Positions 3,343-23,763 of a stretch of 64,000 nucleotides of DNA are shown here, one piece after another (position 1 is the first letter of the stretch; the number at the start of each line of letters is the position of its first letter). The notes under the pieces were generated by a model that did no database searches, had not been told where the DNA came from, and worked only from the letters and a program-made list of their open reading frames with translations. The position numbers and the translations under genes were made by a program. The stretch lies in contig CAZKBP010000003.1 in NCBI GenBank assembly GCA_964551015.1, forward strand, positions 21,327-85,326. Direction: 5' to 3'. Source of the DNA: an uncultured Cytophagaceae bacterium. GTDB lineage: Bacteria; Bacteroidota; Bacteroidia; Cytophagales; Microscillaceae.

Positions 3343-3345
3343 CCT

Positions 3346-4245: not shown

Positions 4246-4328
4246 AGACTCAAACTATGCTAGGGATTTATGAGTTATCATAGTCAAGAATAAATAAAGA
4301 TAAAAACGCTTCTTAGAGTAAAACATAT

Positions 4329-4925: not shown

Positions 4926-4977
4926 TCTGAATTTATCGTCAATAATATAAAATCTAATCTAATCCGAATATACATTT

Positions 4978-5754: not shown

Positions 5755-5785
5755 TTAATCAAAGAAAGCTTAAAATTATAGAGAT

Positions 5786-6130: not shown

Positions 6131-6192
6131 TTCTTACGAACAAAAGAATCCGGCGATTGGTTTACTGATAAATCAATCGCTTTTTTCATGCT

Positions 6193-6918: not shown

Positions 6919-6963
6919 ACCTAATCTATTCAGTTACAATCATTACATCTTAAATAAAAAAAT

Positions 6964-7524: not shown

Positions 7525-7649
7525 GTAAAGAAACTTACAAAAGCCTGTAAATGTTATACTTATAGATAATCAAAGGAAAAAATAGACTCGCCAAATGGTA
7601 GAACCACGGCGTTTTCTGGCCATCTGGTGAGCATCAATCCATAGCAATT

Positions 7650-7925
7650 ATGAAAAAAATATTTAATCGTAAATACATTCTTCTGCTTGTGTTCTTTCTG
7701 GCTTTTAGCTGGCAAAATGCTTGGGCACAGTGCGCAATGTGCCGTGCTACCGTACAAAATCAAGCAAGTGATGGCGGAGATTTAGTAGCAGGGCTGAACG
7801 CAGGTATCTTGTATCTGGCAGCCATGCCCTATGTGATTTTTGCGATCATAGGCTATGTTTTTTATACCAATACCAGAAAGAAAAATGTCAGAAAAAACCA
7901 AGTTACAAGCCATCGCTGGGGCTAA
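7650..7925 (+). CDS. Small secreted or membrane protein with a CAMC motif (hypothetical)
   Basis: 91 aa. Signal peptide (LLLVFFLAFSWQNAWAQ) is followed by CAMCRA, then one TM helix and a basic tail. The ATG start overlaps the next gene's start by 41 nt. Confidence 0.35.
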   Translation: MKKIFNRKYILLLVFFLAFSWQNAWAQCAMCRATVQNQASDGGDLVAGLNAGILYLAAMPYVIFAIIGYVFYTNTRKKNVRKNQVTSHRWG

Positions 7926-8292
7926 ATGTCCTCGTTGCCGAGTAGGGGAAATGTTCCAATATTCTACTTATCACCTAGGAGGCTTCAAATTTATGGAAAT
8001 GCATAAGAACTGTCCCCAGTGCGATTTCAAGTATGAAGTAGAGCCCGGATTTTTTTACGGGGCCATGTATATCAGTTATGCCTTCTCGATTGCAATCAGC
8101 GTAGCAGGTAGTGTGGCGACTTACGTGTTGGGAGGAGATCCAGACGCTTGGGTCTATATCACGGTGGTCTCTGTCTTACTTTTTTTGGCTGTACCTTTTT
8201 CCTTCCGCTACGCCCGAGTGCTAATGCTTCATGTATTCGCAGGTATTAAATATCGCCCTGAGTTAGCAGAATCTCTTGAAAAGAGAGAATAA
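7885..8292 (+). CDS. DUF983-family membrane protein (CPxC...CPxC zinc-ribbon-like N-terminus)
   Basis: CPRCRVGEM...CPQCDF followed by two or three TM helices. Size and pattern fit DUF983. ATG at 7885 is preferred over the track's upstream start. Confidence 0.5.
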   Translation: MSEKTKLQAIAGAKCPRCRVGEMFQYSTYHLGGFKFMEMHKNCPQCDFKYEVEPGFFYGAMYISYAFSIAISVAGSVATYVLGGDPDAWVYITVVSVLLFLAVPFSFRYARVLMLHVFAGIKYRPELAESLEKRE

Positions 8293-8349
8293 GTCCTATC
8301 TTTGTGAAAATTGCACGTACATTCATCAAAAAAATCAATCTTATATCTT

Positions 8350-8802
8350 ATGAAGTCTGCACTCTACCGTATCGGTTTGTTCGTTTCTATCTGTATTTAT
8401 GTTTGGGCTTGCTCCTCAGAAGGTAATCAAAAAAACGCAACAACTAATACTTCCGCGTCGTCCTCTGATAATGAGGTTGAGGTAAGCGAAAACGATGAAC
8501 CAGAATTAAGCGAACTTGCTCAAAAAGGTAAAAAAATATTTGAGATCAATTGTGCACAATGTCATTTGATGAGCAAAGAAGTATTGATTGGCCCTGGCTT
8601 AGCTGGGGCAACGGCCCGAAAAGACAAGGAATGGATACTCGCCTTTATCAAAAACTCTCAGAAAGTAATCCAAAGTGGGGATGAGTACGCGGTAGCACTG
8701 TACGAAGAATATAACAATACCGTGATGACGAGCTACTATGGTACAGACGAAGAATTAGAAGCCATTTATGCTTACTTGAAAGCTTACGAAAACGAAAGCT
8801 AA
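8350..8802 (+). CDS. Class I c-type cytochrome (lipoprotein-like), candidate electron donor to the aa3 oxidase
   Basis: CAQCH heme-binding motif and a Met-rich distal region. Lipobox-like VWAC after a hydrophobic leader. Last gene of the cox cluster. Confidence 0.75.
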   Translation: MKSALYRIGLFVSICIYVWACSSEGNQKNATTNTSASSSDNEVEVSENDEPELSELAQKGKKIFEINCAQCHLMSKEVLIGPGLAGATARKDKEWILAFIKNSQKVIQSGDEYAVALYEEYNNTVMTSYYGTDEELEAIYAYLKAYENES

Positions 8803-8811
8803 CCTGATTAT

Positions 8812-8846
8812 GGGAAGAGCCGAATAGCTCTTCCCACTTTTATTTT
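8812..8846. terminator. Rho-independent terminator, bidirectional between convergent genes
   Basis: GGGAAGAGC-cgaata-GCTCTTCCC perfect 9-bp stem (8812-8835) followed by a T-rich run (acttttatttt). Confidence 0.6.
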
Positions 8847-9927
8847 ACAGTTTGCGAAGTCTTTGAAAATTCCATACCCGTTCTCGGTCGCTTAATATCA
8901 AGTAGTAAGTCCCTATTTCAAATTCTTCGGTAGATAACCGCAGCACCTGAGGCAAAGTATCGCTTGAACACGGGATACTTTTTACGATCCTTCCGTACTG
9001 ATCTCTTATTTCCAAATAAAACTTCTTCGGAGCAGGAGCATCCTTCAGCTTGACTTGAAGCTGATCTTGAAAAGGGTTTGGAAAAACTTGCCAAGCTAGT
9101 GTCTTCTCATTCGAGTCTTCGCTGAGATCGCTATCTACGATCGTGAAAGCAATTAACACGGAATCCCCTCTTGCTCCACTAGCTAATTTTTCTCCAAAAG
9201 CTTGCAAACTCAAAAGATAATGACCGGGAATGGCTTCCCAAGGGACAAACACACCTCGGGGCGAATCTCCAAACAAAGCATAAGGAAGGATACTTTCTAC
9301 TCTTTCTTCAATAATTTCTCCTTGTGAATTTTCTAGCCGAAAACTTACGCTATTGGCTTGTTTTACGAGAACCTCGAAGTTAATAGAGCGTCCCGTTTCG
9401 GCAATATCCAGCGTATCTCCCAACTCGATAGGACGGACTCTGGCATTGGCAAAGGCATTAATGAGCAAAATGCTATCGATACGCGGAGGAGGTAATACTC
9501 GGAACGATATTTCCAAGGGTAGTCCAGCCGTACCCCCTGCGTTTTGCTCCGTAAAAGCTTGTGCAGAAATGGTGTAATCACCAGGGGGTAGCACCCTGCC
9601 CGAAAATAGATCTCCTTGATTACCAAAGAGCGTGAAAGGAGCCAAGTTTTCAACGTTTCGAAACTCGAGAGGCCCTTCTAATTGCAATAAAACACTTCTC
9701 ACCTGACTCCCTTCCGTCTTTGCTTGGAAAGTAACAGCAGGAATCGAGGCAGCATCAAACTGGACGAGCATAGAATCTTGGAGCCTAGCAACTACCGAAT
9801 TTTGAAGCGTGTCAATGAGCAGAATATGATCAATGAGGAGTGAATCTTGAGCAAAAATGGCTTCCGAAAGTACAGAAAAATATAGCCAGAGTAATAAAAA
9901 TCTAGCAAAAAAATAGTTGGTGTACAT
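8845..9927 (-). CDS. Secreted protein with T9SS C-terminal sorting domain and two copies of a beta-sandwich repeat domain
   Basis: N-terminal signal peptide. C-terminal VFPNPFQDQLQVKL...YYLIL fits a Por/T9SS C-terminal domain. Internal repeat containing PF(T/A)LFG is also present in the upstream gene. Confidence 0.7.
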   Translation of the reverse strand: MYTNYFFARFLLLWLYFSVLSEAIFAQDSLLIDHILLIDTLQNSVVARLQDSMLVQFDAASIPAVTFQAKTEGSQVRSVLLQLEGPLEFRNVENLAPFTLFGNQGDLFSGRVLPPGDYTISAQAFTEQNAGGTAGLPLEISFRVLPPPRIDSILLINAFANARVRPIELGDTLDIAETGRSINFEVLVKQANSVSFRLENSQGEIIEERVESILPYALFGDSPRGVFVPWEAIPGHYLLSLQAFGEKLASGARGDSVLIAFTIVDSDLSEDSNEKTLAWQVFPNPFQDQLQVKLKDAPAPKKFYLEIRDQYGRIVKSIPCSSDTLPQVLRLSTEEFEIGTYYLILSDRERVWNFQRLRKL

Positions 9928-10053: not shown

Positions 10054-13000
10054 CTACTGATTCTTTATAAGTTTAGTTGTATAGGTTCTCCCTTTGGAGT
10101 GAATTTGTAATATATAGACACCTGGATTGAGTGGCCTTAGTTGTTCATTGAGCCAAGCCTCAAGGTGCGCAGCTGAGGTTTGCATAGCTCTTTGATACTG
10201 GCCATCTAGGCTCAGCAGTTTGACCTCTACTATCTCCGAATTTGATTGAGATAACTGGCTCTTCACCTGTAAGCGATGAGAGAAAGGATTCGGATATACT
10301 TGTACTTCGGTCTCTGCGTCAAGAATTGGTTTTGCTACGTTTTCATCAGCCTCTTCAAAATGTGCGCGAGCGGCCAAGTTCGTTGATGAAACTGGCTCAT
10401 AGGGCAAGACATTACTGATAAGATACACATTATCATTATAGTCATAATTGGCTCTTGGGCCTACATAATCCTGAGCCACGAGGTAGTGGTGTTCTACAAT
10501 TTTGCCCTCGTGATCCTTGAGTGGCCATACGCGGAGTGCAAGTCTGCCTGCTAAGGTGTCTTGGTCAGCGTGAGGATAATTTTTATAAAAATCAGTATGA
10601 TTGCCATTAACCACCAAATCTACAAACCCATCTGGGCGAAAATAACCAGTGGCAGCTCTGTGGGCTTGTGCTTGGTTGCTCAGGTGCTGTGGCCGAGGGA
10701 GCAAGGATTGGGCATCCCTGCCTAGGTGCGCAAAGAGAGGTTTCACAGGGCCACCCGCAATGCTGTATCGGATACTCTCGAACTGATCACAGCAACTGTG
10801 ATAAGCAGCCAACTGCATGATACGAACGGCCTGTTTGGGATCAGCCACTGTAAAGAACCTCGTTCTGATTTCGTCCCCCGCGAGTGTAAAATCATCACCT
10901 GCTTTTTTATCTGTGAAGCCAATGTTGGTGCTAAGGCCGAACGCATCCACAATTTCTTGTAAATGTGGCTCGCGGTCTCCTTCTCCTTGCTTTTGCCATA
11001 AACCGTGCAAGAGTACGGTTTTGGGCTGTTTTTCGTGAGAATTATAGATTTTCAGCGCTTCGTGTAAGACTTTGACCAGACCATCTCTGGCTCCGGCAGG
11101 ATTGCGGGCAATAAATTTTAAACGGATATCTAGAGCTTGCCCTGCTGGAATGGACAGAGAAATATTATCCAAATTTGTGATTTGCCAATAATCTGGATTG
11201 GTGATAATCAGGCTATCAATATGAAGCATATCTGGGTATTGGTTATGGAGTCTTAAAGTTACTTCATCGTGATTGGCATTAGGACCCAGCTCAGAAGGAG
11301 AACCAAACCAAGGCTCTTGAATACGACTGAAGCTTAGCTGATCGTGGGCAGGAAATCCATCCAAGTTCTCTAATACTAGCCGAGAAGGAGCCAAAGGTTC
11401 TGTGACTCTAAGTAAGGTCAGCTTGGCTCCTCCAAACTCCGAAACATATAAATTTCCCGTAAGGGGATCTTCTACCAAATCTAAGGGGTCTTGAAAACAG
11501 CGCATACCTGCCTCTCCGGTAACATCTACGAAAGATTTTACGATGTTGTGGGTACGATTATCAGGTTCTAAGATAATGATGTCATCATTTTGGCTGTACC
11601 TGACCACCAAGAGTTTACCCTTGAGTTTCCCTCCAAAGGCTTTGCTCTGATATTCTATGGCTCCATTGGGAGACTTATTATTTTCAAAGTTAAAAGCCAA
11701 GCCATCGTGGTCGAAATTAGGATCAGCCGCAATACCATCATAGGCAGGATTATCTACATCCAGATCGCCTCTATTGAGAATATATTCGCCGCGTCTGGGA
11801 TTAGGATGTCCATAATAACGTCCAGCTTTAATACGATACAACCAATCACTCTGCGTAGGAGTGACCTTGGCCACAGCCGGGATGATCTTGAGGGTAGTGT
11901 CGCTTACTAGATGATTGATGAGGTTTTCTACGAGTGTATCCTCTGGATAAAAGCCAGGGGTATTACCCCCCAAAGCTGATCCATTAGTAGGCACGTAAAG
12001 TTCTCCATTACTGTGCCATACCAAATCATAGGCATTTCTGATACCAGTAGCGTATAGCGTTAAGGGAGCCTCTTCAACGGAGGGATCATAGCTACCTCCT
12101 TCGGCAGTTTTGACATCGAGGGGGAGATCTTTACTGGCCTCCAACTTTTGCAAATCGAGACGCAGTATTGCGGCAGAAAGGAGTTTTTCTGAGCGATTGC
12201 CCCAAGCTGCATCGGCTCGCCCCATGGCTGTATTGCCTCCTTGAGAAATGTATAATTGCTGGTCAGGGCCAAAAGCCATACTACTAGTCAGGTGATCTTT
12301 GAGAGAACGGGGTAAGTGAATCACCATATCCTCTACTGAGTCCAGGTGCTTGCCGCTCAGACGGGCGATATTACCATCCCACTCTGGTCCTTCTTCAAAA
12401 GTGTAATGCCCTGAATAAGAAACCCAAGCGATTAAATTATCGGCAGTAGCCTTGGGGTCAAATACGAGTCCAACGGCCATTTTGGGCCCCGTACCAAAAT
12501 CAGGAGCGCGTTTGTGTTTCCGTAGCGAAGAAATCGTCTCTGCTTCGCCGAGTAGGCCATCTTTATCTATCCTAAAACGTTTAATCAGACCATCAATCGT
12601 CAAAGCGTAGAGCTTCGAGTCTGGGCCGATACAAAGGCTTGTATATTGCTTCCCAGCGGCTTGGGGGAGCGCTACCTTTTCAAAGCGAATATCTTGGAGG
12701 GACTGGCTGAGAAAGTGTGCGCCCGTCCGAAAAACCAAGGAATAAGGAACGATGGCATTCTTATCCAAATCTGTAATGTCTGATTTAAAATCTAAGCGAT
12801 AAGTAGTGTAGCTTTCCAGAGGTGCGCAGGGAACAAGGGTAATTGCATCTCCACCTCCGGTAGAATTGACTTGTGCATCTACGATTTGGTGATTAGATAA
12901 GTTCGTCAAGGTAATGTTGAGATTATTGACCGTGCTGCGATCAAGAGCTGAATTGAGTAAGAATAGTTCCGTAGAAAAGTTTTCATCCAAAGCCACCTCT

Positions 13001-14094
13001 TGCATGTGGTCGATGAGCAAATTACCAGAGCTACCGTGTATTTCTATCACCCAAGGACGGGTCGGGACCCCTTCTTCATAAACCTCAATGGCCGAAACAA
13101 TCGCATTATTCACCACAGAAGTAAATTGAATATCTAAGGTATTATTTTGATCCAATTGAATATTTTCAAAAGTTTTTACCAAAGCGTGAGTGGCTCCCAC
13201 CTCCTGAAAAATATCCAAGCTATCTAAGACTCGTTCTCCTTCAATATCTACGTGGAAGATCCTTTGACCCGCCCGTCCTTCTATACCCTGAGGACTGCCA
13301 AAATAAGGTTCCATAAAATGTAGCTTGACTGTGTAAGCTGAGAAATTGGAACGAACGGGCAGATGATAAGCAAAACTACGACTGCCCTGAGCAACGTAGC
13401 GATAGGTTTGATAAATAATATCTGATTCAGTATTGGCAATCTCATAAGGCTTGGAGGCCGTCCAACCCCCCGTAAAATACTTTCCCTTTTTGTCATTTTC
13501 CCAATTGCCACTGTCTAAATCAGTAATATCATTGCCCCCCACATTGATGCGATAGAGGGAAGTCGGTTCATTAGATTCTATAAACTCGAATTGTACCTGA
13601 AAAACTGAGCCTGACAATCCTGATAGATGTGCTCCTGCAAAAGCCAAAACTTCTAAATTGTAAGTGCCACCCACGGCCGTTTTTCCCTTAAAATCCTGAG
13701 AAGAGGCTTCTCCAAAGAGGGTATAAGGATAAATATTCTCAGTTTGTTGATGAACCATAGCTCCATTCAAAGAGAAAGAAACACTTCCTACTTGCTGGGG
13801 GGAAATTTCTGCTATAATATTAAAACGAAATAATCTGTCTTTGGGCAATTTGATACGATCTCCATGACTAATTTCTTGCAAAATCGCATCTTGATCTGCA
13901 TCTACCAAGAGCAACCGAGTGACCTTCAAGCTGTCCTGAGTGCTAGGTGGAATAGGTGATGGCGGCCTCAAAGATAGAACCGATGTCGAGACAGGGCTAC
14001 CCGACGGAAATAAAGTAGTGGAGTAGCCTAGAAACCAAAACGTAGAAAATAAGGCTAGAAAACTAGCAAAAAAATACCTGGATGAAATTTTCAT
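10054..14094 (-). CDS. Very large secreted T9SS cargo protein with a malectin-like carbohydrate-binding domain and a glucose/sorbosone-dehydrogenase-like beta-propeller
   Basis: 1346 aa. Signal peptide. N-terminal repeat domain shared with 8845-9927. Malectin-like segment (NVGGNDITDLDSGNWENDK...YTVKLHFMEPYF). GSDH-like propeller segment (QQLYISQGGNTAMGRADAAWGNRSEKLLSAAILRLDL). C-terminal VYPNPFSHRLQVK... T9SS C-terminal domain. Confidence 0.65.
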   Translation of the reverse strand: MKISSRYFFASFLALFSTFWFLGYSTTLFPSGSPVSTSVLSLRPPSPIPPSTQDSLKVTRLLLVDADQDAILQEISHGDRIKLPKDRLFRFNIIAEISPQQVGSVSFSLNGAMVHQQTENIYPYTLFGEASSQDFKGKTAVGGTYNLEVLAFAGAHLSGLSGSVFQVQFEFIESNEPTSLYRINVGGNDITDLDSGNWENDKKGKYFTGGWTASKPYEIANTESDIIYQTYRYVAQGSRSFAYHLPVRSNFSAYTVKLHFMEPYFGSPQGIEGRAGQRIFHVDIEGERVLDSLDIFQEVGATHALVKTFENIQLDQNNTLDIQFTSVVNNAIVSAIEVYEEGVPTRPWVIEIHGSSGNLLIDHMQEVALDENFSTELFLLNSALDRSTVNNLNITLTNLSNHQIVDAQVNSTGGGDAITLVPCAPLESYTTYRLDFKSDITDLDKNAIVPYSLVFRTGAHFLSQSLQDIRFEKVALPQAAGKQYTSLCIGPDSKLYALTIDGLIKRFRIDKDGLLGEAETISSLRKHKRAPDFGTGPKMAVGLVFDPKATADNLIAWVSYSGHYTFEEGPEWDGNIARLSGKHLDSVEDMVIHLPRSLKDHLTSSMAFGPDQQLYISQGGNTAMGRADAAWGNRSEKLLSAAILRLDLQKLEASKDLPLDVKTAEGGSYDPSVEEAPLTLYATGIRNAYDLVWHSNGELYVPTNGSALGGNTPGFYPEDTLVENLINHLVSDTTLKIIPAVAKVTPTQSDWLYRIKAGRYYGHPNPRRGEYILNRGDLDVDNPAYDGIAADPNFDHDGLAFNFENNKSPNGAIEYQSKAFGGKLKGKLLVVRYSQNDDIIILEPDNRTHNIVKSFVDVTGEAGMRCFQDPLDLVEDPLTGNLYVSEFGGAKLTLLRVTEPLAPSRLVLENLDGFPAHDQLSFSRIQEPWFGSPSELGPNANHDEVTLRLHNQYPDMLHIDSLIITNPDYWQITNLDNISLSIPAGQALDIRLKFIARNPAGARDGLVKVLHEALKIYNSHEKQPKTVLLHGLWQKQGEGDREPHLQEIVDAFGLSTNIGFTDKKAGDDFTLAGDEIRTRFFTVADPKQAVRIMQLAAYHSCCDQFESIRYSIAGGPVKPLFAHLGRDAQSLLPRPQHLSNQAQAHRAATGYFRPDGFVDLVVNGNHTDFYKNYPHADQDTLAGRLALRVWPLKDHEGKIVEHHYLVAQDYVGPRANYDYNDNVYLISNVLPYEPVSSTNLAARAHFEEADENVAKPILDAETEVQVYPNPFSHRLQVKSQLSQSNSEIVEVKLLSLDGQYQRAMQTSAAHLEAWLNEQLRPLNPGVYILQIHSKGRTYTTKLIKNQ

Positions 14095-14930
14095 GACAAA
14101 AGAATTTAAAAATGTAAGACAAAAATAAACCTGTGAAATACCAAAAAGAATCTAACTTTTAGATAATAAGCTGACCTAGTGCTCCCGTGGTATCTGCTTA
14201 TTTTTTAAAACAGAACCAAAGATGTGAACACCATCCGAAGTAATGATTTTGAAAGAAAATGGCTATATTTGCAATCGCTACCTTCAATCAGTTGCCTGAT
14301 AGCAACCAATCCCTAACAGAGCTATGTAATTTATTTGTTCGTTTATCACATGTTATCGGTGCGTCCATACACGTGAATAGTACGACTTGGTACGGCGATC
14401 TCAAAGGGCCATAACGCTTGCATATTTTCGTGTCAGTTTTACCAGAATTGTCATAACATTTCCAGTGATAAAAACTGGGTGATTGATTATGATCACAAGA
14501 TTACTAGAATTATAGATAAAATCAAGAAAATGTTATAAACAGCAAACTATTGTTACGAACGGAGCTTCTTAGCAAGAAAAATCAGCAAATCATGAGAATT
14601 GGAGGCATATTTTCTCAAATGATCTGATTTTTGATAGAGTTGTTGAGAAACACTGTGCAATCTTTGTGAAAAAGCAAGATTTTCCAATTGATTTCCATGC
14701 TTCCTCAGTCTTAAAATCGTATTTTGAATTAAGAAACTGTCTAGCGTTTTAATTTGGTAGCGAAAAAGTTCTATTTTGAGTTCTTACGAAACCGGTTTTT
14801 GAAAGCATAGCCCCGGCTATGGTTGAAAAAATTGGTGAAGTCAGGTGCTGAAAGAGGACTTTTGCAGCCCCAAGGTAAACTTTAGACTTGCTTCTAAGTG
14901 AGCTTTTAAATATTACAACTCCAAAGAATT

Positions 14931-17900
14931 ATGCCTAAGACTTTAGCCTATTCTTACCTGAGTATTTTATGCTTATTTACCTGCATACCGACCGAGGCAA
15001 AAGTTTCAGGTAAAAAAGTGGTTCCAAACCTCAGTCAACTACAAGTAGACTCACTCTACCCAGCTCCTTTTTCTCTATACGCTCAGAGAGAAGATCCCAT
15101 TCAGATTTATTTCAATGAAGAACTGAACCCTGCGCTGGACTACCGACCCTATCTGCAAGTAGTAGGAAGTTTACAAGGCAATATAGCAGGAGAAATTCGT
15201 GTAGATACAAACCAACTCACGTTCCAGCCAAGTAGATTATTGAAATACGGGGAGAAAATAGAGGTATGCATTTACCCCGGCGTACTTTCTGCAAGTGCTA
15301 ATACCTTGGCCTTTGCCTATCATTATCAATTTCAGGTGCGCTCTTTGCCTATTGAGCCCAATTTGAGCAGAAGTACTCTGGTAGGAAACGAGGGGAAGGA
15401 CGCTGGAGAAGGCAAACACGTCTATACCGTGGATGTAGATCGAGATGGAGATATTGATATCATTTCGGCACACAGTAAAAATAATGACGATTTGGGTAAG
15501 ATTATCTGGTACGTCAATGAAGGTGAACTTAATTTTAGACCCAAGATCATTGATCCGCAGGCTATTGGTGTTAACCATTTGCAAGCCTGCGATTTAGATC
15601 AAGATGGCTATCTAGATATACTAGCTACGGTTCCTACCGAAGCGGATGATCGTATTGTTTGGTATCGCAATCAAAATAATCTAGACTTTAGCGAAGGCTT
15701 AGATATTAAGCCGCCTCCTGGAACCGTGCCTATCATGGGGATTAATTCTATACAAACTGGGGATTTAGATGGAGATCAAGATATAGATTTAGCCGTGTGT
15801 GTAGAGTTTAACGATATGGTTTTGTGGATCGAGAATCAAAACCAAAATCCCTCCACGGTAAATCCAAATCAATTCAAGTGGCACTTACTGACTGATTTGA
15901 CAGGCGGTGCCAAGGACGTAAGTATAGCAGATTTAGATCAGGATGGGCGTTTGGATATCGCAGTGGCTGCCAAAGGTGTTTCAACGAAAAACAGAAGCAA
16001 AAGCGATGTAAAAGTAGCTTGGTTCAAAAATCAGGGTGATAGGATTTTTGATACTCGTATCCTCATTCGAGGAGGGCGCTACGAAGCATTCTCCATTGTT
16101 CCTGCTGATTTGGATGGCGATGGCGAGGTTGATTTGATATTAGGAAGCCGTAGAGGTCTGGGAGCAGTAGGGAGGCTATCGTGGCTTCAAAGTTTGGGAG
16201 AAGGAAATTTCTCTGATGAGAAAATTATCACTGATTTTGGTTCTGGTATAAAATCCGTGAATGCTACGGACCTAGACGGGGATTTGGATCTAGATATTGC
16301 GTATGTCTCTCCTTTGAGGAGTGAACTCATTTGGTACGAGAATGAGGGTAATCTTGTCTTTAACCGAAGATTTGTATCTAATGTCAGTAAGATAGAAGCT
16401 ACACAAGCTACTGATGTAGATCAAGATGGATATGTGGACTTAGTTTCTATCTCTGGGACAACTGGGAATGGTAGAGTGTCTTTGAGTAAAAATGTTCCAG
16501 CCCTATTTATTAAGGAGGCGTTCGTAGGAGAGCATTCCGATCACGTTTTGAGAGAGACGAAACCTTGGGTCGTCTTTTCTGAAAAAATAGATGAAGCTTC
16601 CCTTGATCCTAAGGGCTTCTTTGTGAGAAGTAAAATCAGAGGGCGTCTCTCTGGAAACTACGTGATAAGAGAGGATACGGTTTTTTTTGAACCCGATAGC
16701 CCTTTTTTGGCGGGCGAACCTTGTACCCTGTATCTGAATCAAAATCTGCAATCGGTCAATGGAAAAACCCTGAGCCGTAATTTTGCCTTTGAATTTGTCA
16801 GTAGAGTAGAAGAAAACACCACCGAGTTCAGACCATTACGGATTGATTCTGCAGATGTATTAACCCCGGTTTCTCTGCAGATTACCGACCTTGACCTAGA
16901 TGAAAAGCTAGATATTATTGTCGCTAGGAGCGAAGGAGGAGAGAGCAAAGTAGATTTCTATCAACAAAAAACGGCCAGAAATTTTTCCAAATACAAACTA
17001 GCTCAAGACTTGCGCGGCGTAAACGACTTAGATATTCTAGATATCAAGATAAATGAACCCCCAAACTTGCTCGTAAGTGATGAAATTGACGCTGAAATTG
17101 CTTGCTACTATTGGCAAGATTTTCCTAGTTCGCCCCCGACTTTTGCTACCAAAAATGTCACAACATTTCAGCCAAGATTTGTCCTTTCCACGGATATGGA
17201 TGGAGACGGCGATACAGATATACTTGCGATCTTCCAAGAAGAAGACCGAACCAGAACCTCTTGGCTGGAAAATATCAATGGAACCTTTAGCGAGCAAGTC
17301 ATTGATGAGAATATATTGGAAGCAAGCGCACTCACTGTGGCAGATATGGACCGGGATGGAGACCAAGACGTGCTGATTGCCTATGCCGTTGCTAACCGAG
17401 TGACTTGGTACGAAAACGACGGGCTTCTCAACTTTGCCGAAAGAAATCTTGAACAAGAATTGGCAGTTGGTAAACCAACTTCGGTTCAAACTGCTGATTT
17501 AAATCAAGACGGATACATGGACATCCTGGTCGCTGCCGAAAAAGAAAACAGCTTTTTCTGGTTTCAAAACAAGGGCAACCATCAATTTACTAAAAGAGTT
17601 TTGGAAAGCTTCCCCGAAGATAGAGTGACCTCCAAAGTAACTGCCACAGATGTAGATGGTAATGGACATCTGGATATTGTCTACTCGATTCCCAATGAAA
17701 GTAAATTGATCTGGTACTCGAACTTAGGCGGAGGTCATTTTGAGAGCCAAGCACGCATTATCAGCGATACACAAACTGATCTCAAAGATTTCTTCCCCGT
17801 TGATCTAGACAATGATGGCGATATGGATGTAGTTACGGCTTTGGGCACTGAAAAACAATTGGTATGGCTGGAAAATAAACCACTCATGCGTATAATACAA

Positions 17901-18953
17901 ACGCAGCTTTCGCCTGCCCCGGGAGACAGCCTCATCTCAGATAGAGCTAATATTGAGCTGTTTTTTTCCGAAGAGATTGATCCAGCTACGGCTCGTTTTC
18001 CGAACATTATCGTACAAAATCAAAAGGGAGATACCTTGGCCGGAACTATCCAAGTTTCAGGTTATCAAGTGTCCTTCCAACCCGAATCTAATTTTACACC
18101 CGAAGATACCATCTACGTGACCATCACCATTGATGTGCTAAGTAAGCAAGCCAAATGTATAGCCAAAGATTACACTTATTTTTTTGTAATAGCCCCCGCC
18201 ATTTGCCTTGAGGCCAGCGAAAGCGGAGGTTGTGCCCCCTTCCCACTGGAAATAAATGATTGTAGCGCAGGGAGCTTAGAAATTAGGTACATCTATGAAT
18301 CTGGGCAGATTCCTACCTTAGAAAAAAAGCATACTTACAAGCAACCGGGCATTTACAACCCTCAGCAAATTATCTTCTACAGAGATGGCATTGACACTAT
18401 GATGCTTTCTAAGCCCATCGAGGTACTACCTGTTCCTGAGGAGTTGCGTATCTTGGTAGAAAACGAGCAATTAGCCATTTGCCCAGAGAGCAGACTTACG
18501 CTAAGGGTCAGCCCTGCCTATGATACCGAAACTTACGAATGGTTTCGAGAAGATGAGGATGTTGCTTTTGCCCAAGGACAAGAAATCCAGATCCAAACCG
18601 CGGGTAGCTACCGAGTGCAGGCAGAAAATATTTGTGGTCTTTTGGCATCGAAACCCTTGGTAATTCCCGAGCTGGAAGTGTTTTTGCCTAACCTCTTCAC
18701 GCCCAATGGAGATGGCAATAATGATGTATTCCGTCTGCGCTCTACGGATTTATCCCAATTAAAAAGCATAGAATTGATTGTCCTAGACCGTTATGGTAAT
18801 CAAGTTTATGCTACTAAGAACATACAAGAAGCCAGCGAAAAAGGCTGGGACGGTGGCTCACAGCCTTCTGGTAATTATACCTGGACTTTAAAAGCTGAAC
18901 TAGAAGGGTGCCAAGGCTACTCCGCCCAAGGTCGTTTGACTCTGTATCGCTGA
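14931..18953 (+). CDS. FG-GAP/VCBS-repeat (integrin-alpha-like propeller) secreted protein with a type-B T9SS sorting domain ('gliding-motility' C-terminal domain)
   Basis: 1340 aa. Signal peptide. About 14 Asp-rich FG-GAP/VCBS repeats (DVDRDGDIDIIS, DLDQDGYLDILA, DLDGDQDIDLAV, ...). Ig-like segments. C-terminal LPNLFTPNGDGNNDVFRLR is the hallmark of the type-B T9SS C-terminal domain. Confidence 0.75.
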   Translation: MPKTLAYSYLSILCLFTCIPTEAKVSGKKVVPNLSQLQVDSLYPAPFSLYAQREDPIQIYFNEELNPALDYRPYLQVVGSLQGNIAGEIRVDTNQLTFQPSRLLKYGEKIEVCIYPGVLSASANTLAFAYHYQFQVRSLPIEPNLSRSTLVGNEGKDAGEGKHVYTVDVDRDGDIDIISAHSKNNDDLGKIIWYVNEGELNFRPKIIDPQAIGVNHLQACDLDQDGYLDILATVPTEADDRIVWYRNQNNLDFSEGLDIKPPPGTVPIMGINSIQTGDLDGDQDIDLAVCVEFNDMVLWIENQNQNPSTVNPNQFKWHLLTDLTGGAKDVSIADLDQDGRLDIAVAAKGVSTKNRSKSDVKVAWFKNQGDRIFDTRILIRGGRYEAFSIVPADLDGDGEVDLILGSRRGLGAVGRLSWLQSLGEGNFSDEKIITDFGSGIKSVNATDLDGDLDLDIAYVSPLRSELIWYENEGNLVFNRRFVSNVSKIEATQATDVDQDGYVDLVSISGTTGNGRVSLSKNVPALFIKEAFVGEHSDHVLRETKPWVVFSEKIDEASLDPKGFFVRSKIRGRLSGNYVIREDTVFFEPDSPFLAGEPCTLYLNQNLQSVNGKTLSRNFAFEFVSRVEENTTEFRPLRIDSADVLTPVSLQITDLDLDEKLDIIVARSEGGESKVDFYQQKTARNFSKYKLAQDLRGVNDLDILDIKINEPPNLLVSDEIDAEIACYYWQDFPSSPPTFATKNVTTFQPRFVLSTDMDGDGDTDILAIFQEEDRTRTSWLENINGTFSEQVIDENILEASALTVADMDRDGDQDVLIAYAVANRVTWYENDGLLNFAERNLEQELAVGKPTSVQTADLNQDGYMDILVAAEKENSFFWFQNKGNHQFTKRVLESFPEDRVTSKVTATDVDGNGHLDIVYSIPNESKLIWYSNLGGGHFESQARIISDTQTDLKDFFPVDLDNDGDMDVVTALGTEKQLVWLENKPLMRIIQTQLSPAPGDSLISDRANIELFFSEEIDPATARFPNIIVQNQKGDTLAGTIQVSGYQVSFQPESNFTPEDTIYVTITIDVLSKQAKCIAKDYTYFFVIAPAICLEASESGGCAPFPLEINDCSAGSLEIRYIYESGQIPTLEKKHTYKQPGIYNPQQIIFYRDGIDTMMLSKPIEVLPVPEELRILVENEQLAICPESRLTLRVSPAYDTETYEWFREDEDVAFAQGQEIQIQTAGSYRVQAENICGLLASKPLVIPELEVFLPNLFTPNGDGNNDVFRLRSTDLSQLKSIELIVLDRYGNQVYATKNIQEASEKGWDGGSQPSGNYTWTLKAELEGCQGYSAQGRLTLYR

Positions 18954-18956
18954 TCG

Positions 18957-20507
18957 ATGAAAAGTAGATTTATGAAAAAAGTCGCTTACTTCCTCCTCTT
19001 CATTCCTCATTTACTCTGGCCTCAATGGAGCAAAAGCCAAGATTTTGCTTTTTCACAATACTGGAATTCCCCATCCCTGACCAACCCTGCTGCCATTTTA
19101 CAAAGTTCAGCGGCACAAATACGCTTGAATTATCGTTACCAAGAGCTTCCTACCGGAGATTTTTATAGTACTGCGCTCCTTAGTGGCATTTATCCACTTT
19201 TGAATCAGCAAAAAGCCCAGCCCTGGGGAGCTATTTCACTTTCTTTACTCCGAGACAATCAGGGAGGGCTGAGCCAAACGAATGGAGTCTTAGCCGGAGC
19301 CGCTTATCGTATTTATTTTTTGAACAGTGAGCTAAACTTTGGTCTACAAGGTGGATTTTTCCAAAGACACATTGGAGACGATACCTACAGAACCGATAGC
19401 CAGTTTACGTCGAGTGGTTTTGATCCGAATTTGCCCATCCAAGAAAGTTTAGTGGGAATCAATACCTACTATGGCTTGGTGAGTACAGGTTTACAATGGA
19501 CACAGAGGGACGAAAAAGAAACTCCTCTCTGGTGGCTGGGAGTGGCTTGGCAGAATATAAATCGCCCTACGCTCAACGAGTTGGAAGGATTTACGGAATC
19601 CTTTCGCTTACCGAGTTATTTTACGGGAACAGGCGGTTTTCGACTTTGGTCGGATGCACGTTGGAGTATTAGTCCTCAATTTCGCTGGATCAATCGCTTG
19701 GATTTCAATTATTTACACTTGGGTGCAGACTTCAGTTATCACCTAGATGCGAATGCTGCTTTGAAAAAGCTTGGTGATCTGCACTTTGGTGCTTGGTATT
19801 ATACGAATCAAGCGGTTTTATTGGCCTTCACTTGGGATCAGCCTAAATTCCTGCTGACTTTTAGTTACGATGTAGCTCTGGGAGAAGAGAGCCGTGTTTG
19901 GTTGGGGAATGGTGCCTTGGAACTGACGCTGGGCTTAAAAATAGCACGCAGACCCGCTCGGAAAGAAGACAAAGATTTTTTTATAGAAGATGCCGTAGGA
20001 GCTATTCTCGAGCAAGGCAAAGCACTGGTCAAGCAAGAACCTGACTCAACGGTATCGATGAGCCCCTCCCCAGAAGATTCCATATCCAAGCCAATCAGAG
20101 ATACTATTCCTCCCGCAAAAGATACGAATAACTTAGCCCTGACCGAGACTGTAGCTGATGATTCGCTGGCAGAAGAAGAGGTGACCATTCGCTTGGCTGC
20201 CTTGGATTTTCCTGATCTGAAACTCAGATTTAGCAATGTTGAAAATCGCCTCACCCCCACCTCGCTAAAAAATATTGATGAACTTGCCCAATCCTTAGTC
20301 TACTACGAGGATACAGAAATTGAGATTGTTACCTATGAACCCGTGGAGGCTCTGATCCAAAATTTAGGTAAACGAATGAAAAATTACCTGATTGAGAGGG
20401 GAGTGAAGGGCAAAAATATTTTCTTAAAAATAGGCAACCGAGATCAACTGCCCGAAGCAGAGAAAACAAATACGGAATACACAATCATTGAAATCAAAAC
20501 AAAATAA
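18957..20507 (+). CDS. PorP/SprF-family T9SS outer-membrane protein with a C-terminal extension (possibly a degenerate OmpA-like domain)
   Basis: N-terminus ...SKSQDFAFSQYWNSPSLTNPAA matches the PorP/SprF signature (QDPQFSQY..NP..NPA). It is immediately downstream (4-nt gap) of a type-B C-terminal-domain cargo gene, the canonical arrangement. 516 aa is about 170 aa longer than typical. Confidence 0.65.
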   Translation: MKSRFMKKVAYFLLFIPHLLWPQWSKSQDFAFSQYWNSPSLTNPAAILQSSAAQIRLNYRYQELPTGDFYSTALLSGIYPLLNQQKAQPWGAISLSLLRDNQGGLSQTNGVLAGAAYRIYFLNSELNFGLQGGFFQRHIGDDTYRTDSQFTSSGFDPNLPIQESLVGINTYYGLVSTGLQWTQRDEKETPLWWLGVAWQNINRPTLNELEGFTESFRLPSYFTGTGGFRLWSDARWSISPQFRWINRLDFNYLHLGADFSYHLDANAALKKLGDLHFGAWYYTNQAVLLAFTWDQPKFLLTFSYDVALGEESRVWLGNGALELTLGLKIARRPARKEDKDFFIEDAVGAILEQGKALVKQEPDSTVSMSPSPEDSISKPIRDTIPPAKDTNNLALTETVADDSLAEEEVTIRLAALDFPDLKLRFSNVENRLTPTSLKNIDELAQSLVYYEDTEIEIVTYEPVEALIQNLGKRMKNYLIERGVKGKNIFLKIGNRDQLPEAEKTNTEYTIIEIKTK

Positions 20508-20657
20508 GAATCATCTACCAGAATTATTCACAAAAAGCTAAAATTAATTAAAAAACCAAGGGTTAAATTTGTATATTACAATGCAAAAGGTCTTGTTCAT
20601 ATTTGGTAGTCCACGAAAACGAACAATGGCCTTGTAGCGTTATTGCTCGGCAAAAAG

Positions 20658-22328
20658 ATGGCTCATATCAAAAAAATACTGTTTATCTGGATTTTGATCC
20701 TACCAGGATGGATTTCGCATCTCCTTGCCCAAGCTGATACAATTCGCTTGAGTATTGTAGATGAACAGACCAAAGAAAAAGTAGGTGGAGCGAGCCTAAC
20801 CGTAGAAGACCATCGCATTCAAGTGAACCCCAGCATCCTCGCAGGAGAGTTCTTATTGATCTACAACCGAAAGGATCAACTTCCTAAACTCGTGAATATC
20901 AGCGTACAGGTACCGGGCAATGCAAGTCGGATGAAAGGACGCATCCCTCTGAACCGATCATCTATAGAAATTCCTGTCCGCATCCCCCGACTAGAACAAG
21001 AAAGTGAGCAACTCGCCAAGACCAAATCTAAGTCTGAACCGCAAGACCCAACAAATACCAACCCAGCCAAACCCACGGAACCTAACCAAAAGAACGCAAA
21101 AAAAAACTTGACCGAGCGTCTGGCAGATAAAAAAGGAAGCACCAAAGCTACCTCCGAAGAGAACAAATCTACCCAAGAAATTTCATCCGAATCCAAAGGG
21201 GTGATTAGCTCCTTGGATCGAGCCGAAGATGCGCTCAACAAACTATTGACTGAGCAGGCTGACGAACAATTCCGGAAAGAATATACAAACATTCTGGTGG
21301 GTATCCGAGAAATTAGCCAAACCCTTGATTCCAAATTCACCATTTCCCAAGAGCGGAAAGACCGCTTCAACCAGCAGCTAGACTCTCTGGAGCAAAAACT
21401 GGCAGCACTGGTAATCAGAAGAAATGCAGAAATGGCTTCTTATGAAGAATTGCTTCAGAACGCTCGCACTGAACTCGAGAAAGCGCGGCGCTTACTAGAT
21501 GACGCCTGGGTACTGAGTACGCGCTTTATCATTTATACGATACTCGTCTTTTTGATTTCTCTTTCTCTGGCTGGGCTTTTTATATTTCTTTTCAATCGGA
21601 TAAGAAAACAGAAAAACGAATTAGCAGATTATTTACAAACAGTCAACCAACAGAGCGAAGAAATATTACAGCAAAACGAAGAAATTGCCGCACAGCGAGA
21701 CAAACTACAAGAGCTTTTCAATCAGCGAGAAATTTTACTCAAAGAAATTCACCATCGAGTTAAGAACAATCTGCAAACCATTGATAGTCTGCTGAATCTA
21801 CAATCTAAAACCATCGATGACCAAAAAGCCCTCTATGCCATCCGAGATGGTCAAAGCCGGGTGAAATCTATGGCACTCATCCACGAAAAGTTGTACGAGT
21901 CTGAAAATATGGAAAAAATTGACTTTCAAGACTATGTGCAGAAGCTATTAGACTATCTGGCCTATAGCTTTGATTCAGATGATAAAGAAATCCAATATCA
22001 AATCAATACGGAAAAAGTATTTTTTGATCTAGATCGTGCCACGAGCCTAGGTCTGATCATCAATGAATTAGTTTCTAATATTTATAAATATGCCTTCGTG
22101 AATCAAGACAAGGGAGAGATTCAGGTCGCCCTAACCACTACCCATCACCAAGGCTATTGCTTGATCGTGGCCGACAATGGAGTGGGACTGCCCCACGATA
22201 TAGACATTGAGAAAACCAAAACACTGGGCTTGAAACTAGTTAAGTGGCTGACCGAGCAACTGAAAGGCCAGTTGCGCGTAGAAAATCACGTGGGTAGTAA
22301 GTTTATCCTAGAGTTTAAGATGAGTTAG
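20658..22328 (+). CDS. Sensor histidine kinase, HisKA_2/HWE-type, with an extracytoplasmic N-terminal domain
   Basis: Signal/anchor, a roughly 270-aa periplasmic region with a low-complexity Lys/Glu/Thr-rich stretch, a TM helix, a coiled coil, the H-box EIHHRVKNNLQTIDSLLNLQS, then HATPase_c (LGLIINELVSNIYKYAF...DNGVGLP). Track start 20643 is TTG; ATG at 20658. Confidence 0.8.
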   Translation: MAHIKKILFIWILILPGWISHLLAQADTIRLSIVDEQTKEKVGGASLTVEDHRIQVNPSILAGEFLLIYNRKDQLPKLVNISVQVPGNASRMKGRIPLNRSSIEIPVRIPRLEQESEQLAKTKSKSEPQDPTNTNPAKPTEPNQKNAKKNLTERLADKKGSTKATSEENKSTQEISSESKGVISSLDRAEDALNKLLTEQADEQFRKEYTNILVGIREISQTLDSKFTISQERKDRFNQQLDSLEQKLAALVIRRNAEMASYEELLQNARTELEKARRLLDDAWVLSTRFIIYTILVFLISLSLAGLFIFLFNRIRKQKNELADYLQTVNQQSEEILQQNEEIAAQRDKLQELFNQREILLKEIHHRVKNNLQTIDSLLNLQSKTIDDQKALYAIRDGQSRVKSMALIHEKLYESENMEKIDFQDYVQKLLDYLAYSFDSDDKEIQYQINTEKVFFDLDRATSLGLIINELVSNIYKYAFVNQDKGEIQVALTTTHHQGYCLIVADNGVGLPHDIDIEKTKTLGLKLVKWLTEQLKGQLRVENHVGSKFILEFKMS

Positions 22329-22477
22329 CTCCATCCAAAACTGCCGTGATTTTATGGATTTCATCCGATGGAATTCCTTCCAAAGAGATGCTTGATAAGA
22401 TGAAATTATCAAGACCGAGCTTGTGCTTTATCTGTATCGAGATGACTTTTTAACAATTATTGGAAGACAAATACACT

Positions 22478-23173
22478 ATGTTTAAACTCAGAATCCTGAT
22501 CGTGGAGGACAATCGGATCGCCGCCGAAGACATTGCCTCCGACCTAGAAGACATGGGTTACGAAGTGGTTGGTAAGGCCATAGATGTAGATCAAGCTGTG
22601 GCCCATTTGGAGCAGGAAAGTCCTGACTTGGTGTTGGTAGATATTAACCTGGGAAGCGACGAAAGCGACCGAAGTGGTATTGATCTGGCAGAAATGATCA
22701 ACCAAAAATACAAATTGCCTTTCATTTACATGACTGGTTATAGTGATGTGGCTACCGTCTCCAAAGCCAAGCATACCAATCCTCACGCTTACTTGACTAA
22801 GCCAATCAAACGAAAAGAATTATATGCTAATATAGAAGTGGCTTTCAGCAGTTCTGCGAATTACCTGTTGATAAAAGACGGCCACTCGCACCGTAAAATC
22901 AAGCTCAAAGACATTCTCTGGTTACAGGCGGATGGGAATTATAAAAAAATTTATACCCAAGCGGATAAATTCCCCATCACAGCACGGATGAGCATGGAAG
23001 AACTAGAGGATAAATTACCCTCGCATCGCTTCCTGAGAATTCACAAATCTTATATCGTCAACATAGAATACATTGATGCGGTCAAGGGAGATTCCATTCA
23101 GGTTACCGAGCAGTTGCTGCCCGTGGGAAGGGCTTATCTTGAAAGAGTACAAAAAGCCTTGAATATCGTTTAA
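22478..23173 (+). CDS. LytTR-family response regulator (REC + LytTR DNA-binding domain)
   Basis: REC domain with phospho-acceptor Asp context (LRILIVEDN...VLVDINLG...). C-terminal LytTR pattern (IKLKDILWLQADGNYKKIYT...RIHKSYIVN). Track start 22460 is TTG; ATG at 22478. Confidence 0.85.
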   Translation: MFKLRILIVEDNRIAAEDIASDLEDMGYEVVGKAIDVDQAVAHLEQESPDLVLVDINLGSDESDRSGIDLAEMINQKYKLPFIYMTGYSDVATVSKAKHTNPHAYLTKPIKRKELYANIEVAFSSSANYLLIKDGHSHRKIKLKDILWLQADGNYKKIYTQADKFPITARMSMEELEDKLPSHRFLRIHKSYIVNIEYIDAVKGDSIQVTEQLLPVGRAYLERVQKALNIV

Positions 23174-23185
23174 TCCTAATCCATA

Positions 23186-23215
23186 AGGGTGGTTCGCGCT
23201 GATTAGAACCACTCT
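23186..23215. terminator. Candidate bidirectional terminator hairpin between convergent genes
   Basis: AGGGTGGTTC-gcgctgatta-GAACCACTCT, a 10-bp stem with one mismatch. Weak T run. Confidence 0.4.
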
Positions 23216-23223
23216 TTGCCGTC

Positions 23224-23763
23224 TTATATTTCCTCATACTCTACTTGCCCTTCCCTACCTTCCTTCTGCTTGACCTGATAATAGTACAAGCCCAAATAAC
23301 GCCAGCGATGATTGGAAAAAATCATCAACAAACGAAGCTTTAAGGTCTGATCCGGAAAATCAATATCGATGGTCTGCTGCCCTACCTGAATGCCTTGTTC
23401 TTTGATCCAAGTCCTAAAGTTGGCTTTTTTGAAATCTGCTTGTTTCAAATTCAGGTGACGATCTCGAGCCACTTGTAGAATATCCAAGAAAATTTCTTTT
23501 TCTTCTTTTAGCCTGACCTGCTCCGAGTAATAAGAACCCTTACTCATAAAACGCTTGAGACCTGGTACTAGCTCCATGAGCTTGTTCAACTCACGAATAT
23601 TTGCCCAGTAGGGGCCAGTTTGCTCAAAATTTCCTTCCTGTAAAGATTCCCAGTAAAAAATTCCCAAATCTTCAGGCGAGCTAGGCGTGCTTTGGGCACA
23701 AGCCTGCAAGCCGAGAGCCAAGACTAAATAGCTACTATATCGTAAAATTTGTTCTTTCATCAC
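23224..23763 (-). CDS. Hypothetical lipoprotein
   Basis: Signal peptide with lipobox-like LQAC. No recognisable catalytic motif. Confidence 0.4.
   Translation of the reverse strand: MMKEQILRYSSYLVLALGLQACAQSTPSSPEDLGIFYWESLQEGNFEQTGPYWANIRELNKLMELVPGLKRFMSKGSYYSEQVRLKEEKEIFLDILQVARDRHLNLKQADFKKANFRTWIKEQGIQVGQQTIDIDFPDQTLKLRLLMIFSNHRWRYLGLYYYQVKQKEGREGQVEYEEI

Follow-up and report, generated by a model that had tools for sequence, protein, structure and literature searches.

Architecture of the Locus

The stretch of DNA analyzed here, 64,000 nucleotides (nt) of contig CAZKBP010000003.1 from an uncultured Cytophagaceae bacterium (hereafter the window), carries on its + strand, between positions 14931 and 23173, a block of four genes. 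They encode, in this order, a type IX secretion system (T9SS) cargo protein with a type-B C-terminal sorting domain (CTD), an outer-membrane protein of the PorP/SprF family, a sensor histidine kinase with a HisKA_2 core, and a response regulator composed of a REC and a LytTR domain (Table 1). A preliminary description of this DNA had already placed four open reading frames (ORFs) at these positions, all of which our analysis confirmed, and had interpreted them as an adhesin or motility-surface protein whose expression is governed by its own two-component system. In our view, the four genes are likely to be functionally coupled, with the adhesin complex itself as the probable partner of the sensor.

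The PorP/SprF gene follows the cargo gene immediately, as had been described, with a spacer that is 3 nt long (18954-18956) and not 4 nt. The gaps in front of the kinase and the regulator genes, 150 and 149 nt, have precisely the previously reported extent.

Table 1. Features of the four-gene block and of its surroundings in the window (aa, amino acids; MFE, minimum free energy; AF2, AlphaFold2; pLDDT, per-residue model confidence)
Feature	Position	Strand	Residues	Basis or remark
Type-B T9SS cargo, 1340 aa	14931-18953	+		Pfam and TIGRFAM matches
Type-B C-terminal sorting domain of the cargo, motif LFTPNGDGNNDVF	18684-18953	+	1252-1340	CHU_C, TIGR04131
PorP/SprF outer-membrane domain of a 516-aa protein	18957-19940	+	1-328	PF11751, TIGR03519
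C-terminal extension of PorP, ~190 aa: polar linker (aa ~329-410) and ~105-aa domain	19941-20507	+		Position equivalent to the OmpA/PorE-like domain of P0002
PorP-to-kinase spacer, 150 nt, GC 0.33	20508-20657	+		Bacteroidetes-type -7 box TAAATTTG at 20564
Bitopic sensor histidine kinase, 556 aa	20658-22328	+		Pfam, AF2 model, sensor-family alignment
Kinase, signal peptide			1-25	Ends in AQ
Kinase, seven-stranded beta-sandwich			26-107	pLDDT 75-83
Kinase, disordered linker			112-179
Kinase, two helices			175-198, 201-225
Kinase, periplasmic coiled coil and its continuation as a helix			231-330	One uninterrupted helix that crosses the membrane at ~288-312 and reaches the HisKA_2 domain
Kinase-to-regulator spacer, 149 nt, unusually structured RNA	22329-22477	+		MFE -33.2 kcal/mol, z -2.68, 1/200 shuffles as stable
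Response regulator, 231 aa	22478-23173	+	REC ~6-119, LytTR ~139-228	ATG at 22478
11-bp stem-loop just past the regulator stop, between convergent genes	23185-23216	+		MFE -15.5 kcal/mol, z -2.71
Divergent intergenic region, AT-rich, 836 bp, GC 0.35, presumed module promoter region	14095-14930			Between the minus-strand type-A and the type-B cargo genes
Type-A T9SS cargo genes, divergent, directly upstream of the block	8845-9927 and 10054-14094	-
aa3-type cytochrome c oxidase cluster	360-8802	+		COX1, CtaA, CtaB/UbiA, two COX3-like, SCO1, DUF420, DUF983, cytochrome c

The Type-B Cargo Protein

The cargo protein starts with an N-terminal Sec signal peptide (MPKTLAYSYLSILCLFTCIPTEA, followed by K; read by eye), continues with three Big_5 Ig-like domains that alternate with two FG-GAP/VCBS propeller regions, and ends with an Ig-like region and the type-B CTD. 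Pfam recognizes these parts through FG-GAP_3 (E = 4.2e-70, 10 stretches), FG-GAP (2.1e-31) and Big_5 (6e-26, 3 stretches), while the CTD is matched both by CHU_C (2.6e-13; 50.3 bits against a cutoff of 27; aa 1252-1335) and by TIGR04131 (39.3 bits, with the curated cutoff at 35; aa 1252-1338). The Pfam and TIGR models thereby bear out the earlier assignment of the gene pair: it consists of a genuine type-B cargo gene and a neighboring PorP/SprF gene of the cognate type. Export of the cargo is predicted to depend on the T9SS and on a cognate PorP/SprF-like protein, for which the gene 3 nt downstream is the candidate.

An Extended PorP/SprF Protein

The PorP/SprF domain itself is unequivocal, with matches to PF11751 (5e-27; 95.6 bits against a cutoff of 22.3; aa 26-325) and to TIGR03519 (139.1 bits, with the cutoff at 90.55; aa 6-328, covering model positions 1-291 of 292). 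However, the protein measures 516 aa, in contrast to the ~330-370 aa of the usual single-domain members and the 335-366 aa of the other family matches that we recovered, and the surplus is a C-terminal extension that the preliminary description had overlooked. Its closest relative is P0002, the 553-aa PorP protein encoded at a metagenomic locus (L003) to which we return below; the two proteins are 32% identical and collinear along their full length, and P0002 carries, at the position of the window extension, a canonical OmpA domain that is recognized on its own (PF00691, 8.8e-19). The window extension alone did not match PF00691 even at E<=10, and pairwise comparisons gave E values of 0.014 with the domain from L003 and of 0.28 with that from a more distant locus, L008. 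The alignments (A1 and A3) reveal what has become of the OmpA motifs (GxTD...LSxxRA...NRRVE) in the window protein: the GYTCD segment is deleted and NRRVE has turned into YTIIE. In an AF2 single-sequence model (pLDDT 65.5), the extension displays a beta-alpha-beta-alpha-beta-beta order of elements, for which a Foldseek search against the PDB yielded no significant match. We discarded a profile match to OmpA-like PDB chains as proof for the window extension, as it was driven by the L003 member. We read the extension as a PorE-like domain that has degenerated and is fused to PorP.

This extension bears directly on the question whether the cargo moves. Proteins with a type-B CTD bind PorP-like proteins (PMC9143113, PMC12618676), and a type-B cargo gene that is followed by a PorP/SprF gene corresponds to the sprB-sprF arrangement of Flavobacterium johnsoniae (PMC9143113), with which the window pair has the cognate cargo/PorP-family partnership and the type-B CTD in common. 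The cargo might thus be envisaged as an SprB/SprF-like mobile gliding adhesin that is propelled on its PorP/SprF partner and whose motility is tuned by the two-component system. However, SprB-type mobile substrates lack a co-encoded PorE-like gene, whereas several porP-like genes of F. johnsoniae adjoin porE-like genes, and the cargoes of these appear to be static (PMC9143113, PMC12618676). SprF has no PorE-like extension. The window partner is extended, its closest relative possesses a canonical OmpA peptidoglycan-binding domain at this position, and the cargo consists of FG-GAP propellers and does not follow the SprB repeat architecture. Furthermore, no gliding genes were present among the window ORFs that we scanned. 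The idea of a mobile adhesin is consequently very improbable in our eyes, and the earlier label of a motility-surface protein is disfavored by the association of PorE-like partners with static type-B cargo.

A Stalked Sensor Kinase From a Very Rare Family

The kinase gene starts with an ATG at position 20658 (the mechanically called ORF begins at TTG 20643), and its product has neither a HAMP nor a PAS domain. Its core is composed of a HisKA_2 domain (2e-29; 102 bits against a cutoff of 22.3; aa ~363-435) and a HATPase_c domain (1.2e-11; 45.4 bits against a cutoff of 26.4; aa ~462-555). The HWE family was reportedly defined by Karniol and Vierstra in 2004 through a W-x-E signature in the G1 box. 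The designation of the window kinase as HWE-type was imprecise, and we consider it wrong, because HisKA_2 is the best model (the HWE_HK match reaches 4.6e-6 and 27.7 bits, compared with 102 bits) and because the G1 region, LIVADNGVGLP as read by eye, contains a DNGVGLP box without W-x-E. The "large periplasmic domain" ascribed to this kinase requires a similar revision, since the AF2 model, which was built on a four-sequence alignment, does not depict one globular domain. Instead, it depicts a small beta-sandwich that is followed by a disordered linker of ~70 aa and a coiled coil, from which a continuous helix runs through the membrane into the kinase core (Table 1). Pfam did not recognize the beta-sandwich of the window kinase, and Foldseek returned generic Ig-like fold matches only. 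A classification as CarboxypepD_reg was considered and dropped: a weak Pfam signal below the cutoff is present in the kinase from L003 and in a further relative (P0019), and there is none in the window protein.

The sensor family is extremely rare. An exhaustive HMMER search with aa 1-315 of the kinase against 1.84 billion representatives recovered four proteins at E<=1e-3, namely the window protein itself, P0019, P0020 and P0021, and a word-indexed homolog search with the sensor alignment recovered the window's own protein only. Two kinases (L001 and L002), the only ones that surfaced when genome contigs were scanned with the kinase, proved to be unrelated and were set aside; they had been matched via the generic juxtamembrane coil and the kinase core. 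A similar juxtamembrane coil (phmmer 2e-4) is found within the window in a 1126-aa one-component sensor (39119-42499, + strand) with nine Reg_prop repeats, a Y_Y_Y domain, a segment that crosses the membrane and a phosphatase domain of the SpoIIE type. The coil motif is thus generic among the sensors of this organism, and SpoIIE outputs are in use here.

The Response Regulator and the Signals for Transcription

Both domains of the regulator score above their cutoffs (Response_reg, 1.2e-20 and 74.2 bits; LytTR, 1.3e-18 and 67.5 bits), and the protein is 41% identical to the LytTR regulator whose gene adjoins that of kinase P0019. PorX, the response regulator of the PorXY system, combines REC with a PglZ/alkaline-phosphatase-like effector domain and exerts its action via SigP and PorL; unlike a PorX-type protein, the window regulator has no PglZ match.

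LytTR regulators such as AgrA and ComE target paired direct repeats of 9-10 bp that lie ~21 bp apart in promoters. When we searched the presumed promoter region of the module (14095-14930) and the two spacers in front of the kinase and the regulator genes for such repeats (10-mers, spacing of 18-24 nt), their number did not exceed that in Markov shuffles, in a search whose power is low as the site consensus is unknown. Upstream of the cargo gene, where the preliminary description had suggested LytTR-type repeats might be found, 10 repeats were observed at 8 of 10 matches, compared with 6.0 +/- 4.5 in the shuffles, and none at 9 of 10. Nor did the window upstream region share a motif with its own PorP-to-kinase spacer or with the upstream regions of two related loci (L026 and L024): the counts equaled those of shuffles, and no 10-mer was common to them beyond chance. 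What the region does contain is an 18-nt imperfect direct repeat (14713-14730 and 14765-14782; AAAATCGTATTTTGAATT and AAAGTTCTATTTTGAGTT) with a spacing of 52 nt, ~150-200 nt 5' of the cargo start. Both copies include TATTTTG, which is close to the -7 box of Bacteroidetes promoters. TAnnTTTG boxes upstream of the cargo gene are located at 14264 (+ strand) and 14127 (- strand).

A TAnnTTTG box is likewise situated 86 nt 5' of the kinase start, and one is found 103 nt 5' of the kinase start in L003, where the spacer is 176 nt long; the window-wide frequency would lead one to expect ~0.1 such boxes per spacer. The kinase/regulator pair may, therefore, possess its own promoter. A scan for intrinsic terminators found no such sites on the + strand of the PorP-to-kinase and kinase-to-regulator spacers. 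The latter is unusually structured, with neither a T-run after the structure nor an Rfam match, and may serve as a regulatory leader or as a processing site. The transcription unit probably ends at the stem-loop directly behind the regulator gene. The results of a sigma-70 promoter scan were not used, given that matches were common inside genes and that the model is unsuited to promoters of Bacteroidota.

Recurrence of the Gene Block in Relatives

A word-indexed search with the PorP protein retrieved 12 proteins, of which P0002 alone has the extension in common with the window protein. The locus that encodes it, L003 (Logan assembly of run SRR6462993), comprises genes for a type-B cargo of at least 1885 aa with FG-GAP, Big_5 and Fn3 domains, for the PorP protein with its OmpA domain, for a kinase, for a REC+SpoIIE regulator, and for a further REC protein. 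The L003 kinase shares the ectodomain layout and 25% identity with the window kinase and has a HisKA core, and the two cargo proteins are 24-31% identical across their propeller and Big_5 regions. The second locus with linked genes, L026, comes from a different sample and has a different GC content; it resides on a frameshifted, low-coverage contig (ENA ERZ26696514; GC 0.37) and comprises genes for an FG-GAP type-B cargo, a second type-B cargo, an extended PorP protein, a HisKA_2 kinase of the same sensor family, and a REC+LytTR regulator; its PorP protein (498 aa, including the extension) is 26% identical to that of the window (E = 2e-44), and its PorP and kinase genes are separated by 54 nt. 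The CTD of the window cargo matches those of the L003 and L026 cargo proteins with E values of 1e-15 to 1e-18. Hence, the synteny in relatives on which the preliminary description had let its proposal depend does exist, and the order of cargo, extended PorP, same-family kinase and regulator has been kept at a protein identity of 25-32%. We conclude that it has been preserved in one further organism at the least, and probably in two.

This distinction has to be made since the run from which L003 derives, a metagenome as judged from contig numbers above 550,000, contains an exact copy of the window kinase as well. L003 could consequently lie in the same genome as a paralogous locus, so that L026 alone counts as a clearly independent replicate; GC content, GC content at third codon positions (GC3) and tetranucleotide correlation do not separate a paralog in the same genome from a co-occurring relative.

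At the locus of kinase P0019 (L024/L025), a same-family kinase gene and a LytTR regulator gene follow a gene for a P-type ATPase and a small gene on the minus strand, and neither a cargo nor a PorP gene is linked to them. One further contig (L027; GCA_012033155.1) starts inside the kinase gene and is uninformative. Of the four informative loci with this sensor family, three accordingly have a cargo gene and an extended PorP gene directly upstream, and the adjoining regulator is of the LytTR type, again, in three of four.

The association can also be viewed from the side of PorP. All extended PorP proteins that were found via the window protein (L003 and L008/L009) are encoded next to a kinase gene on the same strand. 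In L008 (8038-11503) and L009 (7996-11449), the PorP protein has 516-522 aa, 25% identity and a degenerate extension, and its gene is overlapped at the start by the gene of a soluble hybrid kinase (HisKA-HATPase-REC-Hpt); a type-B cargo gene is present 4 kb downstream and is not adjacent. By contrast, ~12 distinct control loci with a short PorP protein display the usual cargo-PorP pair and no same-strand kinase gene, with a convergent kinase gene in one case. A separate arrangement was found in L010 (670-7228), where a type-B cargo gene is followed by the gene for a 366-aa PorP protein and then by an ORF that reaches the contig end; this ORF encodes 1373 aa or more, with an OmpA-like domain near the C-terminus. 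From its domain content, this locus is an unfused version of the cargo/PorP/PorE-like triad.

Could the kinase and regulator genes be mere neighbors, an independent unit that shares no function with the cargo/PorP pair and stands beside it through common descent within a narrow clade? The length of the two spacers and the -7 box at position 20564 would be compatible with such a scenario, as would the solitary kinase/regulator pair next to a P-type ATPase gene and the very small number of loci, which possibly represent just two independent organisms. However, the order of the genes has been kept across a degree of divergence that normally erases gene order not under selection, the gap between the PorP and kinase genes amounts to only 54 nt in L026, and even a distant extended PorP gene (L008/L009) points in the same direction as a different kinase gene, which overlaps it, while the short-PorP loci lack such kinase neighbors. 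Furthermore, the extreme rarity of the sensor family makes adjacency by chance unlikely. We therefore regard neighborhood without a common function as quite improbable.

A Conserved Sensor With an Exchanged Output

Kinase P0019 (L024, 3342-4988) is 33% identical to the window kinase along its full length. Its comparison with the L003 kinase (7530-9536), which stems from the same metagenome run, takes a different course: the two proteins are 48% identical over aa 1-362, that is, across the sensor, the segment in the membrane and the coil in the cytoplasm, and have no similarity thereafter. Their cores differ (HisKA_2 in P0019, HisKA in L003), and so do their regulators (LytTR and SpoIIE, respectively). 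This abrupt end of the similarity indicates that the transmitter core and the type of regulator have been exchanged at the junction between coil and DHp domain while the sensor was retained, and such a natural swap marks the functional boundary of the sensor. What has been conserved alongside the cargo/PorP pair is the ectodomain of the sensor together with the extension of PorP, and not the output. Since it is the sensor that is conserved, we favor the view that the adhesin complex is the input of the kinase over the view that an outside cue switches the adhesin on.

The latter view underlies the model of the preliminary description, in which the kinase responds to a cue from the environment that has nothing to do with the cargo and, by way of the LytTR regulator, switches the transcription of the cargo and PorP genes on or off, so that the adhesin is formed conditionally. 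Conserved linkage fits this direction of control equally well; a LytTR domain is a DNA-binding output and is the type present in most regulators of the sensor family, and the 836-bp upstream region offers ample space for regulatory sites. On the other hand, repeats with LytTR spacing are not enriched 5' of the cargo gene, and this region has no 10-mer in common beyond chance with its counterparts in L026 or L024. The L003 locus retains the sensor but relies on a SpoIIE phosphatase as its output, which is unable to bind to a promoter directly. In addition, the ectodomain has no recognizable fold for small molecules (PAS, Cache or periplasmic-binding-protein type) and presents instead a beta-sandwich of the protein-interaction type on a stalk. 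Regulation of the adhesin by the two-component system is, in sum, not supported by the upstream regions or by the output found in L003, and we judge the environmental-cue model as somewhat unlikely.

Genetic Neighborhood of the Block

Of the two type-A cargo genes that diverge from the block, one encodes a 1346-aa malectin/Big_5/GSDH-like protein that matches TIGR04183 above its cutoff, and the other a 360-aa protein with a weak Por_Secre_tail match. Together with the type-B cargo gene, three T9SS substrates are thus clustered at this locus. The intergenic region between the cargo genes has no Rfam match and no ORF longer than 51 aa, and scans for Rfam families and tRNAs, both across the window and in positions 14000-15000, found nothing.

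Genes for a flavin reductase and an NlpC/P60 protein are located downstream of the regulator gene. The ORF convergent with the regulator gene (23224-23763, - strand; 179 aa) has no Pfam or NCBIfam match. Farther away (42987-45155, + strand), the window encodes a protein of 722 aa in which an SLT lytic transglycosylase domain is combined with two LysM domains.

Discussion

The window module combines elements that are known from several envelope systems without being identical to any of them. Its type-B cargo, the PorP/SprF gene that follows, and an OmpA/PorE-like element are also found in operons of F. johnsoniae (e.g., Fjoh_3952/3951/3950) and in PG1035-PorP-PorE of Porphyromonas gingivalis, and from this likeness we infer for the window module a role in the static anchoring of a surface protein. 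In contrast to PorE, which is a separate lipoprotein, the window element is fused to the C-terminus of PorP; TPR, beta-propeller and carboxypeptidase-regulatory-like domains are absent from it, and it has lost the canonical OmpA motifs. Moreover, the window encodes a dedicated kinase/regulator pair, whereas PMC9143113 and PMC12618676 report none for the triad operons of F. johnsoniae and P. gingivalis. Full-text searches of the open-access literature did not turn up a kinase/regulator pair that is encoded with a type-B cargo/PorP pair, nor did they reveal a link between LytTR regulators and the T9SS.

A precedent for a kinase that monitors a T9SS cargo is provided by P. gingivalis, where the CTD of PorA binds to PorY in the periplasm and thereby activates PorXY-SigP (PMC12152298); an element of a secreted protein serves here as the periplasmic ligand of a kinase. 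The systems differ in that PorA has a type-A CTD and the window cargo a type-B CTD, and in that porY and porX are orphan genes unlinked to the cargo gene, whereas the window genes are adjacent. The window regulator, with its REC+LytTR architecture, and the HisKA_2 core of the kinase also set the pair apart from PorXY, and a kinship between the sensor domains of PorY and of the window kinase is not established.

TonB-dependent cell-surface signaling offers a further analogy for reporting from the outer to the inner membrane. The same concept, an outer-membrane protein that reports the state of the envelope to a signaling protein in the inner membrane, is realized in NlpE-CpxA and RcsF-RcsCD (PMC12152298). 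The protein families involved in these three systems are unrelated to those of the window, in which the putative reporter and the kinase are co-encoded with a secreted adhesin.

Collectively, these considerations lead us to the following model. The cargo would be exported by the T9SS, and the PorP barrel would hold it, as a static adhesin, on the surface of the cell, in a complex that would correspond to the published cargo-PorP-PorE complex and be built from two polypeptides instead of three. The single-pass kinase, with its beta-sandwich on a long flexible linker and a coiled-coil stalk, could reach the periplasmic face of this complex. It would read the state of the module either via the periplasmic domain of PorP or, in a manner reminiscent of the PorA CTD and PorY, via unsecreted cargo with its type-B CTD. 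The signal would then travel along one continuous helix to the HisKA_2 core and on to the LytTR regulator, whose phosphorylation would alter transcription; the module itself is among its likely targets. We assign a probability of roughly 0.45 to this reading, in which the stalked ectodomain keeps watch either on the adhesin/PorP complex, from its periplasmic side, or on unsecreted cargo, while transcription is adjusted by the LytTR regulator.

Several observations weigh against it. The beta-sandwich of the window kinase is not seen by Pfam and gives only generic Ig-like matches in Foldseek, and an OmpA-like nature of the window PorP extension could not be demonstrated from that extension by itself. 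The gap of 150 nt in front of the kinase gene contains a -7 box, as does its counterpart in L003, and permits an independent promoter, and the kinase/LytTR pair of L024/L025 stands beside neither a cargo nor a PorP gene. The sample of loci is small, and L003 could represent a paralog in the same genome instead of an independent organism. Beyond domain identity and synteny, the model as a whole is inferred.

A more far-reaching version of the monitoring model would make the module a trans-envelope surface sensor. The FG-GAP adhesin, held by PorP, would be coupled to the kinase through contact between the periplasmic domain of PorP and the beta-sandwich, so that the binding of a ligand, load on the adhesin or failure to secrete it could be signaled across both membranes to a response regulator. 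Sensor and anchor may then form an evolutionary cassette onto which different outputs, HisKA_2/LytTR or HisKA/SpoIIE, have been swapped. We deem this extension unlikely; should it nevertheless be true, it would constitute the first T9SS-anchored outside-in signaling pathway that is encoded as one operon.

The family has so far been seen in a handful of metagenomic contigs from uncultured organisms, without a cultured carrier, and this rarity is a limitation. Type-B cargo proteins and their PorP/SprF partners have hitherto been understood as pairs for secretion and anchoring, and the only signaling described from a T9SS cargo to a kinase is that between PorA and PorY of P. gingivalis, whose genes are unlinked. 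Against this background, the block described here represents a compact and genetically tractable case for the question whether Bacteroidota use T9SS-anchored surface proteins as signaling inputs.

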